Virus record (IMG/VR): IMGVR_UViG_2534681979_000015
Coordinates: 1 to 5,194 of that record
Origin: a virus
Lineage: Duplodnaviria; Heunggongvirae; Uroviricota; Caudoviricetes
Length of the DNA: 5,194 nucleotides
Reading direction: 5' to 3' (one strand)
How positions within the stretch are numbered: the stretch's first letter is position 1; every line of letters begins with the position of its first letter. Positions 159-612 of the stretch are shown here, in pieces. The notes below the pieces were generated by a model. That model worked only from the letters and a program-made list of their open reading frames with translations, was not told where the DNA came from and made no database searches. Position numbers and translations under genes: made by a program.

Positions 159-404
159 TTACATCATCATGTCGCTGTCAGGTGTAGGTTCACCGCCATC
201 TGAAGCACTCCCGTCACCCGCGATACCTTCCGGCTCAGGAACCGCTGGTACGCCCAGCAGCTCATCCAGAATGGCATCCACTTCTGCATCAAGACGCGAC
301 TCAAGGTTCTGGCGAAGTTTCTGTTTCAGTGCGCTCCGGACTTCTTCAGAGCGCAGGACTTCCTTCACTGCCTCTGCAGTGACCAGGGATGTGATTTCTG
401 ACAT
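159..404 (-). CDS. Hypothetical small acidic protein (81 aa); a longer 135-aa form from ATG at 566 is less likely
   Basis: ORF in track 159..566; internal ATG at 404..402 begins MSEITSLVTAEAVKEV... and ends with a Glu/Asp-rich tail (PEPEGIAGDGSASDGGEPTPDSDMMM). The upstream 54 codons overlap ORF 430..612 in another frame and look non-protein-like. Only a weak SD (GAGAAAA). Same strand as the late operon, 25 nt after the stop of the preceding small ORF. Confidence 0.4.
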   Translation of the reverse strand: MSEITSLVTAEAVKEVLRSEEVRSALKQKLRQNLESRLDAEVDAILDELLGVPAVPEPEGIAGDGSASDGGEPTPDSDMMM

Positions 405-429
405 GGGATTTTCTCGCTGAAAGGGGTTG

Positions 430-612
430 TTAAGGAGTAACGGGCTCTTCGGGTTTGCTTCCGGCTGACTGACTGGCGCTGATTTTCTCAGCGGCCCTTT
501 TATCAATCTGCCTGCACCAGAAATCGCGCACAGCCCTGTACCCACCCGAAAGAAGATACAGCACACAGACCGCCGTACAGAAGTACAGCATCACCTGATG
601 AATAAATGTCAT
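430..612 (-). CDS. Hypothetical small membrane protein (60 aa; one N-terminal hydrophobic helix, charged C-terminus)
   Basis: ORF MTFIHQVMLYFCTAVCVLYLLSGGYRAVRDFWCRQIDKRAAEKISASQSAGSKPEEPVTP. Hydrophobic stretch at about residues 6-22, then a charged tail. Weak RBS. Co-oriented between the esterase gene and the holin. No family recognised. Confidence 0.35.
   Translation of the reverse strand: MTFIHQVMLYFCTAVCVLYLLSGGYRAVRDFWCRQIDKRAAEKISASQSAGSKPEEPVTP

Follow-up and report, generated by a model that had tools for sequence, protein, structure and literature searches.

Two small open reading frames (ORFs) in front of the holin gene of an stx2-carrying phage are very probably real genes of the DUF1378 and DUF826 families, and the pair that they form is likely to belong to the esterase cassette upstream of it rather than to the lysis cassette. 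The stretch of DNA analysed in this study (the window) has 5,194 nucleotides (nt) and covers positions 1 to 5,194 of IMG/VR record IMGVR_UViG_2534681979_000015, from a Caudoviricetes phage; the ORFs encode 60 and 81 amino acids (aa). A fuller statement, that two catalogued families form a fixed bicistronic pair in Escherichia and Shigella prophages as an accessory to the esterase cassette, has in our estimate about equal chances of holding and of failing. Both families are already catalogued and routinely annotated, and nothing in their presence here will surprise a specialist. What is new is the start of the DUF826 gene, the evidence for selection, the association with the esterase cassette, including its Mu-like context, a conserved hairpin and the juxtaposition of a Pas promoter.

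Family membership and coding status

A first-pass annotation of the window had placed the two ORFs at 159-612, in the late operon between esterase and holin. The span was exact, and the position was confirmed by the gene order of the whole stretch, in which the late genes are all on the minus strand (Table 1). The same annotation had recognised no family for either ORF and had left their coding status open. However, the 60-aa ORF scored 122 bits (gathering cut-off 25; E = 1.1e-35) with Pfam DUF1378 (PF07125), its residues 1-58 aligning with the first 58 of 59 model positions, and also matched phrog_494 (E = 5e-38). For the 81-aa ORF, the score with Pfam DUF826 (PF05696) was 153.1 bits (gathering cut-off 25; E = 2.3e-45), residues 1-75 covered all 75 model positions, and phrog_311 was matched as well (E = 3e-37). 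RefSeq, through the Prokaryotic Genome Annotation Pipeline (PGAP), also names DUF1378 and DUF826 on the E. coli copies among the matches listed. Window positions 100-700 were 100% identical to an E. coli O104:H4 prophage (NZ_CP027394.1, 486406-490400), in which the PGAP order is SASA carbohydrate esterase, DUF1378, DUF826 domain-containing protein, class II holin and lysozyme. This prophage has Q directly before the esterase and carries no stx genes, and a second matching place was observed in the same record.

The 60-aa ORF is a member of DUF1378 and PHROG 494, like ECs1210 of phage Sp5, and agrees with them in size, hosts and position after the esterase. The 81-aa ORF is a member of DUF826 and PHROG 311 with the same architecture and position; older calls of this gene differ in that they start inside DUF1378, in another frame. 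DNA resembling the pair was present in 346 phage records. Of 5426 complete E. coli genomes, 1015 contained such DNA, with a median of three copies and a maximum of seven in the carriers. All homologues with a source-given name came from Escherichia or Shigella; for DUF1378, 122 homologues were found, and all such names were E. coli or Shigella. An exhaustive hidden Markov model search of 1.84 billion representative proteins returned 54 relatives of DUF826, which makes this a tiny family. In the searchable literature, a single paper mentions both DUFs at this position, and it labels them proteins of unknown function. We found there no functional study of DUF826, DUF1378, L0106 or the ECs/Z or vb_24B counterparts, and the searchable literature yielded no ribosome profiling or proteomic evidence for either ORF.

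For intactness, selection and synteny, 241 related loci were gathered from IMG/VR. Disruption in closely related phages had been proposed as the sign of non-genes; instead, 97-99% of the copies were intact. DUF1378 was intact (58-64 aa) in 238/240 copies and DUF826 (81-101 aa) in 226/233, and the remaining copies were truncated by insertion sequences or recombination. The ratio of nonsynonymous to synonymous polymorphism (pN/pS; pooled Nei-Gojobori, 70 unique DUF1378 and 79 unique DUF826 sequences) was 0.32 for DUF1378 in the annotated frame, compared to 1.3-2.0 in the other sense frames over the same alignment. For DUF826, it was 0.42 overall, 0.23 in residues 1-51 and 0.55 in the tail. Four of five other frames gave a pN/pS of 1.1-2.0. 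The antisense frame with a low ratio (0.42-0.43) was rejected as coding, this value being the expected artefact of shared wobble positions. The DUF826 variants had seven lengths, from 81 to 101 aa, and all length differences in their tails were of whole codons. A hydrophobic C-terminal tip (MMM, MML, TML or TTL) was kept in each of the 79 unique variants; in the window the protein ends Met-Met-Met. Selection, intactness and the in-frame tail indels all indicate genes. Since the family matches are full-length and purifying selection acts in exactly these frames, the two ORFs are more than chance.

These data also support the 81-aa start of DUF826. A 135-aa extension of the 81-aa ORF from a GTG codon (566-159) was rejected, as it overlaps DUF1378 in another, unconstrained frame. 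An antisense ORF of 83 aa (169-420, plus strand) and the remaining overlapping ORFs were rejected as well. Over-long older calls, which correspond to PHROG 8301, are L0106 of 933W (148 aa) and ECs1211 of Sp5 (148 aa). Because the extension frame is unconstrained, the long reading of the L0106/ECs1211 style is to be replaced by the 81-aa gene.

Association of the pair with the esterase

The esterase of the window has the DUF1737, SASA and DUF6645 layout of the prophage NanS-p sialate O-acetylesterases (Pfam). In E. coli loci, DUF1378 and DUF826 were always adjacent and in the same order, and the gap between them was 25, 37 or 40 nt in 137/140 unique regions. An esterase lay upstream of DUF1378 in 230/230 loci with enough upstream DNA. 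The distance between esterase and DUF1378 was 130-160 nt in 229 of these 230 informative loci and about 1.2 kb in the remaining one.

Seven loci that at first appeared to lack DUF826 were found to hold a divergent DUF826 of the same architecture. The divergent copies belong to Mu-like prophages, as present on E. coli chromosomes (L245-L252; for example, L245 2584-5255). Their gene order is Mu Gp48 baseplate, tail-fibre assembly (Caudo_TAP), Gin-like resolvase, SASA+DUF6645 esterase, DUF1378, DUF826, Com, Mom and host genes, and no holin was found within 5 kb of the trio. The Mu-like esterase, DUF1378 and DUF826 were about 55%, 50% and 38% identical to those of the window, respectively. Both small genes have strong Shine-Dalgarno sequences there, GGGAGGG and AAGGAGG. 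At 38-55% identity, the trio has thus stayed linked through a long period of divergence, in two phage backbones that are unrelated. One Mu-like DUF826 variant (P0232) was by itself indexed in 6381 blocks of the sequence collection.

We then compared esterases of the E2348/69 type, for which 422 relatives were found in IMG/VR and 80 loci were examined. The pair was present in 0/80 of these loci, and an S21-type holin lay downstream in 69/80. Presence of the pair did not track DUF6645 of the esterase; this was ruled out, as the domain is found in all these esterases, whether the pair accompanies them or not. In one locus and others like it (L174), DUF826 was truncated to 63 aa and continued into the 3' remnant of an esterase gene of the E2348/69 type, with the holin next. 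Such recombinant junctions suggest that the interval between esterase and holin is a recombination hot spot. The Mu-like loci without a holin and the E2348/69-type loci without the pair indicate that neither the pair nor the holin needs the other, and that the esterase needs no pair. Taken together, the linkage data argue for membership in the esterase cassette, at the strength stated at the outset.

Surroundings of the pair in the window

Table 1. Positions of the genes and elements in the window
Feature	Position	Strand	Source or remark
DNA methylase fragment	5190-4789	-	ORF list
Three tRNAs	4739-4478	-	ARAGORN
stx2A	4387-3428	-	
stx2B	3416-3147	-	
NanS-p-type sialate O-acetylesterase, 636 aa	2661-751	-	Pfam DUF1737+SASA+DUF6645
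PasA/PasC-family small RNA gene	631-745	+	Between esterase stop and DUF1378 start; antisense to late operon
DUF1378 gene, 60 aa	612-430 (ATG 612-610, stop 432-430)	-	Pfam PF07125
DUF826 gene, 81 aa	404-159 (ATG 404-402, stop 161-159)	-	Pfam PF05696
Terminator-like GC hairpin with U-rich run	122-147; U-rich run 109-121	-	Scan and fold; between DUF826 stop and holin
Small conserved hairpin over holin Shine-Dalgarno region	90-106	-	Fold and alignment
Holin 5' end, dual start MYQMEKITT...	ATG 82-80 and 73-71; runs past window start	-	

Esterase stop and DUF1378 start are 138 nt apart, and the spacer holds a predicted small RNA (sRNA) gene on the plus strand. The element consists of a -35 hexamer, TTGACA (631-636), a -10-like hexamer (654-659), a start that would lie near 666, and a terminator with a stem at 709-716/730-737 and a T7 run at 739-745. 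The predicted RNA, of about 80 nt, folded into a terminator hairpin followed by a U7 run. The region 631-745 aligned with PasA and PasC of E2348/69 and with the Mu-like locus; Rfam detected no Pas-type sRNA at these positions. It has been reported that PasA and PasC are Hfq-dependent sRNAs, mapped and verified by Northern blot in enteropathogenic E. coli (EPEC) E2348/69 (Pearl Mizrahi et al., PMC8550237, table S6). The survey of Zhu, Shabalina and Storz places PasA/PasC between a sialic-acid esterase and a holin (bioRxiv 10.64898/2026.05.13.724894). The window element resembles PasA/PasC (EcOnc51/52) of EPEC and enterohaemorrhagic E. coli prophages in promoter hexamer, length, terminator and position. 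It differs in its body sequence, which is that of a divergent variant, and it lies outside both ORFs. It would pair with the esterase-DUF1378 intercistronic RNA, not with the DUF1378 ORF or its ribosome-binding site. The TTGACA hexamer stood 18-29 nt from the DUF1378 ATG in 76/86 unique loci, and the promoter abuts the ribosome-binding region of DUF1378. An antisense sRNA-like promoter and terminator also occur in the Mu-like trio loci.

A different arrangement was observed in PP2 of E2348/69 (L253 2466-2914) and in L256-L335. There, an esterase of another type is followed by two tandem PasA-like antisense units, a short sense stretch with a terminator, and the holin, without DUF1378 or DUF826. 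The sense stretch before the holin holds a 9-codon ORF, MLSGIFSRA, behind the Shine-Dalgarno sequence GGGGAGG.

On the holin side, the larger hairpin begins 11 nt past the DUF826 stop. Across loci its structure was kept and its sequence was not: at 5 stem pairs, both partners had changed in a compensatory manner. Because pairing is kept while the sequence changes, this element looks like an intrinsic terminator that would close the esterase unit. By analogy with lambda biology, Q-modified polymerase would have to read through it to reach S. The smaller hairpin resembles sdi, the element with which lambda controls its dual start. The pinholin that lies 75-77 nt downstream of the pair in lambdoid loci is of the dual-start S21 type, and pair and pinholin share the late direction of transcription.

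Some features farther from the pair were also recorded. The middle tRNA (4568-4656, minus strand) was called by ARAGORN as an 89-nt tRNA-Lys(CTT), and Rfam gave no call. The tRNA trio of Stx2 phages is usually listed as ileZ-argN-argO, and against that background the middle tRNA of the window looks atypical. A full-length STnc100 match (207.7 bits; 2867-3072, minus strand) lies between stx2B and the esterase, and a match to the anti-sRNA AsxR (88 bits; 2813-2865, plus strand) adjoins it on the opposite strand. The STnc100 family is related to PasD (bioRxiv 10.64898/2026.05.13.724894).

Predicted products and possible roles of the pair

The first-pass annotation had described a single transmembrane (TM) helix in the 60-aa ORF and a strongly acidic 81-aa ORF with a tail rich in Gly, Asp, Glu and Pro, and both descriptions were borne out. 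DUF1378 has one strongly hydrophobic segment, with a Kyte-Doolittle 19-residue maximum of 1.93 at residues 3-21, and its AlphaFold model is a single continuous helix of residues 2-50. Its hydrophobic part, residues 2-25, carries conserved cysteines (Cys12 and Cys16) and an SGGY motif (SGGY in 67/70 unique variants). The C-terminal part is basic, with seven Lys/Arg in residues 26-60, and ends in a short Pro/Glu tail. DUF1378 is thus predicted to be a bitopic inner-membrane protein with a TM helix at about residues 2-25 and a basic cytoplasmic helix to about residue 50. From the positive-inside rule, its N-terminus is probably periplasmic and its tail cytoplasmic (N-out/C-in).

DUF826 has an isoelectric point (pI) of 4.1 and a net charge of -11.5. 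Its tail (residues 52-81) contains seven Asp/Glu and no Lys/Arg and is rich in Gly, Pro, Asp, Glu and Ser. In the AlphaFold model, a short helix (10-17) and a long helix (20-50; predicted local distance difference test, pLDDT, above 90) precede a disordered tail, and most of the acidic tail (residues 57-78) has a pLDDT below 50. The AlphaFold models of the two small proteins rest on 17 and 19 aligned sequences. The prediction for DUF826 is a soluble, strongly acidic protein of the cytoplasm, made up of a conserved helical N-terminal domain and a disordered tail of variable length. The size and TM segment of a holin or antiholin were found in DUF1378 only; DUF826 has no hydrophobic segment (Kyte-Doolittle maximum 0.87). 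An NCBIfam search with both proteins gave noise only, PADLOC gave no match for either, and a sequence search of the PDB with the family profiles gave no credible match. Foldseek of both models against PDB and BFVD returned nothing below E = 2, as expected for models of one or two helices.

A previous study deleted the counterparts of the pair. Mondal et al. (2016) removed ORF47-49 of Sp5 en bloc (ECs5606; ECs1210, 59 aa; ECs1211, 148 aa), ECs1211 lying directly upstream of the holin ECs1212 (PMC5155283). By size, position and deletion primer sequence, ECs1210 (ORF48) can be equated with DUF1378 and ECs1211 (ORF49) with an over-extended DUF826. The deletion mutant was neither one of the nine that could no longer form plaques and lysogenise nor one of the five with altered yield (PMC5155283). 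The read-outs of that study were plaque formation, lysogenisation and yield, with lysis kinetics outside them. As the deletion was not listed as defective, the pair appears to be dispensable in K-12 for induction, lysis that gives a lysate, infection and lysogeny.

We propose that the pair is the distal end of a mobile esterase cassette made up of a NanS-p-type esterase, an antisense Pas-type sRNA, DUF1378 and DUF826. In lambdoid phages the insertion site of this cassette is flanked by the late promoter region and the holin, and in Mu-like prophages by gin and com/mom. The basic helix of DUF1378 might anchor DUF826 at the cytoplasmic face of the membrane, and the pair could be a dispensable accessory to the signal-less esterase, serving membrane positioning, release or a linked envelope function. 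It would probably not set holin timing. An interaction of DUF1378 and DUF826 as anchor and partner, together with a role related to the esterase, is a tentative proposal that we rate as possible and somewhat more apt to fail than to hold. A still more specific version is doubtful: a membrane-tethered DUF1378-DUF826 device, dedicated to the esterase cassette, that would for example place NanS-p at the envelope or let it out before holin lysis or without it, and whose synthesis would be coupled to the Hfq-dependent Pas-type sRNA, transcribed divergently from around the DUF1378 start.

Several observations weigh against the proposal of an esterase accessory. Gene linkage in phages can reflect co-transfer instead of cooperation, esterase cassettes of the E2348/69 type exist without the pair, and recombinant NanS-p is active alone, according to a review (PMC8065619). 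The lambdoid copies of both genes have weak Shine-Dalgarno sequences. The long helix of DUF826 has no heptad register and a low hydrophobic moment, and so gives no coiled-coil signal. In addition, a profile scan of genome contigs with a narrow alignment found the most distant placeable relatives of DUF826 at three loci in Pantoea prophages. These relatives directly follow a holin/endolysin/spanin cassette and are accompanied by neither esterase nor DUF1378; because they adjoin the lysis cassette, the ancestral context of DUF826 may have been lysis-proximal. One of them (L244 3950-4177, Pantoea stewartii) is 3' of holin, endolysin and Rz-Rz1 and was observed to have a short conserved W-rich N-terminal extension.

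The last point also bears on a role in lysis timing, which the first-pass annotation had suggested for a small membrane protein next to a holin. In such a role, DUF1378 would be an antiholin-like protein or holin accessory for the S21-type pinholin and DUF826 its cytoplasmic cofactor. T4 RI/RIII-type antiholin systems consist of a small membrane protein and a small cytoplasmic protein expressed with the holin. The pair is loosely like them in being one small membrane and one small cytoplasmic protein; it differs in having no similarity to them in sequence or fold and in not being tied to a holin throughout. The small single-TM DUF1378, the short distance to the pinholin in lambdoid loci with the same late direction, and the Pantoea relatives speak for this role. 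It is unlikely nevertheless. The idea rests on adjacency to the holin, yet the conserved neighbour is the esterase: the Mu-like trio has no holin nearby, and the pair is missing from all 80 loci with the other type of esterase, 69 of which nevertheless continue with an S21-type holin. A conserved terminator-like hairpin also separates the pair from the holin, and the Sp5 deletion does not figure among the mutants reported to be impaired in forming plaques or lysogens (PMC5155283).

It is improbable to a similar degree that the pair is independent moron cargo, sharing only a history of insertion and recombination with the esterase and having a function of its own, such as superinfection exclusion or envelope modification. 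Morons, of which bor and lom of lambda are examples, are optional cargo units of phages. The esterase cassette is like them as optional late-region cargo with its own terminator-like hairpin, dispensable for plaque formation. It differs in having three genes and an antisense sRNA. The Q-to-S interval and the right end of Mu are typical cargo sites, the pair is optional among esterase cassettes, and the interval contains recombinant junctions, all of which are consistent with moron cargo. However, the pair was never found without the esterase in the 230 informative E. coli loci, and pair and esterase have remained together in two unrelated backbones, with all three proteins diverged to about 38-55% identity.

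We consider it quite unlikely that DUF1378 is a membrane-toxic peptide (type I toxin-like or holin-like), restrained by the Pas-type antisense sRNA and modulated by DUF826. Its length of 60 aa, with a hydrophobic N-terminal part and a charged tail, would suit such a peptide, as would the closeness of the -35 hexamer of an Hfq-type sRNA to its start and the full complementarity of that sRNA to the esterase-DUF1378 intercistronic RNA. On the other hand, PasA and PasC are present and expressed in E2348/69 prophages without DUF1378, the sRNA overlaps neither the DUF1378 ORF nor its ribosome-binding site, and the family searches (Pfam, PHROG, NCBIfam) gave no match to known type I toxins.

The strong negative charge of DUF826 had led the first-pass annotation to a DNA mimic or anti-defence protein, a reading that is very unlikely. 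Where a rigid acidic fold of the Ocr/ArdA type would be expected, the acidic tail is predicted to be disordered, of low complexity and variable in length and sequence, and what is conserved is a helical domain of an ordinary amphipathic kind. Early expression does not fit the position either, which is in the late operon between stx/esterase and S, and beside the late gene mom in Mu-like prophages; PDB, BFVD and PADLOC gave no match. Least probable of all is a lack of function, with one or both frames retained by chance or through the constraint of an overlapping RNA: the weak lambdoid Shine-Dalgarno sequences, the lack of published translation evidence in our literature search and a deletion with no reported phenotype stand against frame-specific purifying selection, the intactness of nearly all copies, in-frame-only tail indels, and Mu-like copies conserved at about 38-50% protein identity with strong Shine-Dalgarno sequences.

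With NanS-p esterases, according to a review, Shiga-toxigenic E. coli can use the O-acetylated sialic acids of mucin as food (PMC8065619); the route by which the signal-less NanS-p reaches its substrate is not stated in the literature covered. The useful outcomes of this study are a DUF826 gene model of 81 aa, not 135-148 aa, a neighbourhood that is that of the esterase and not of lysis, and a link to the Pas sRNA. If the pair does help to place or release the esterase, it would be part of the colonisation-relevant cargo of these phages.

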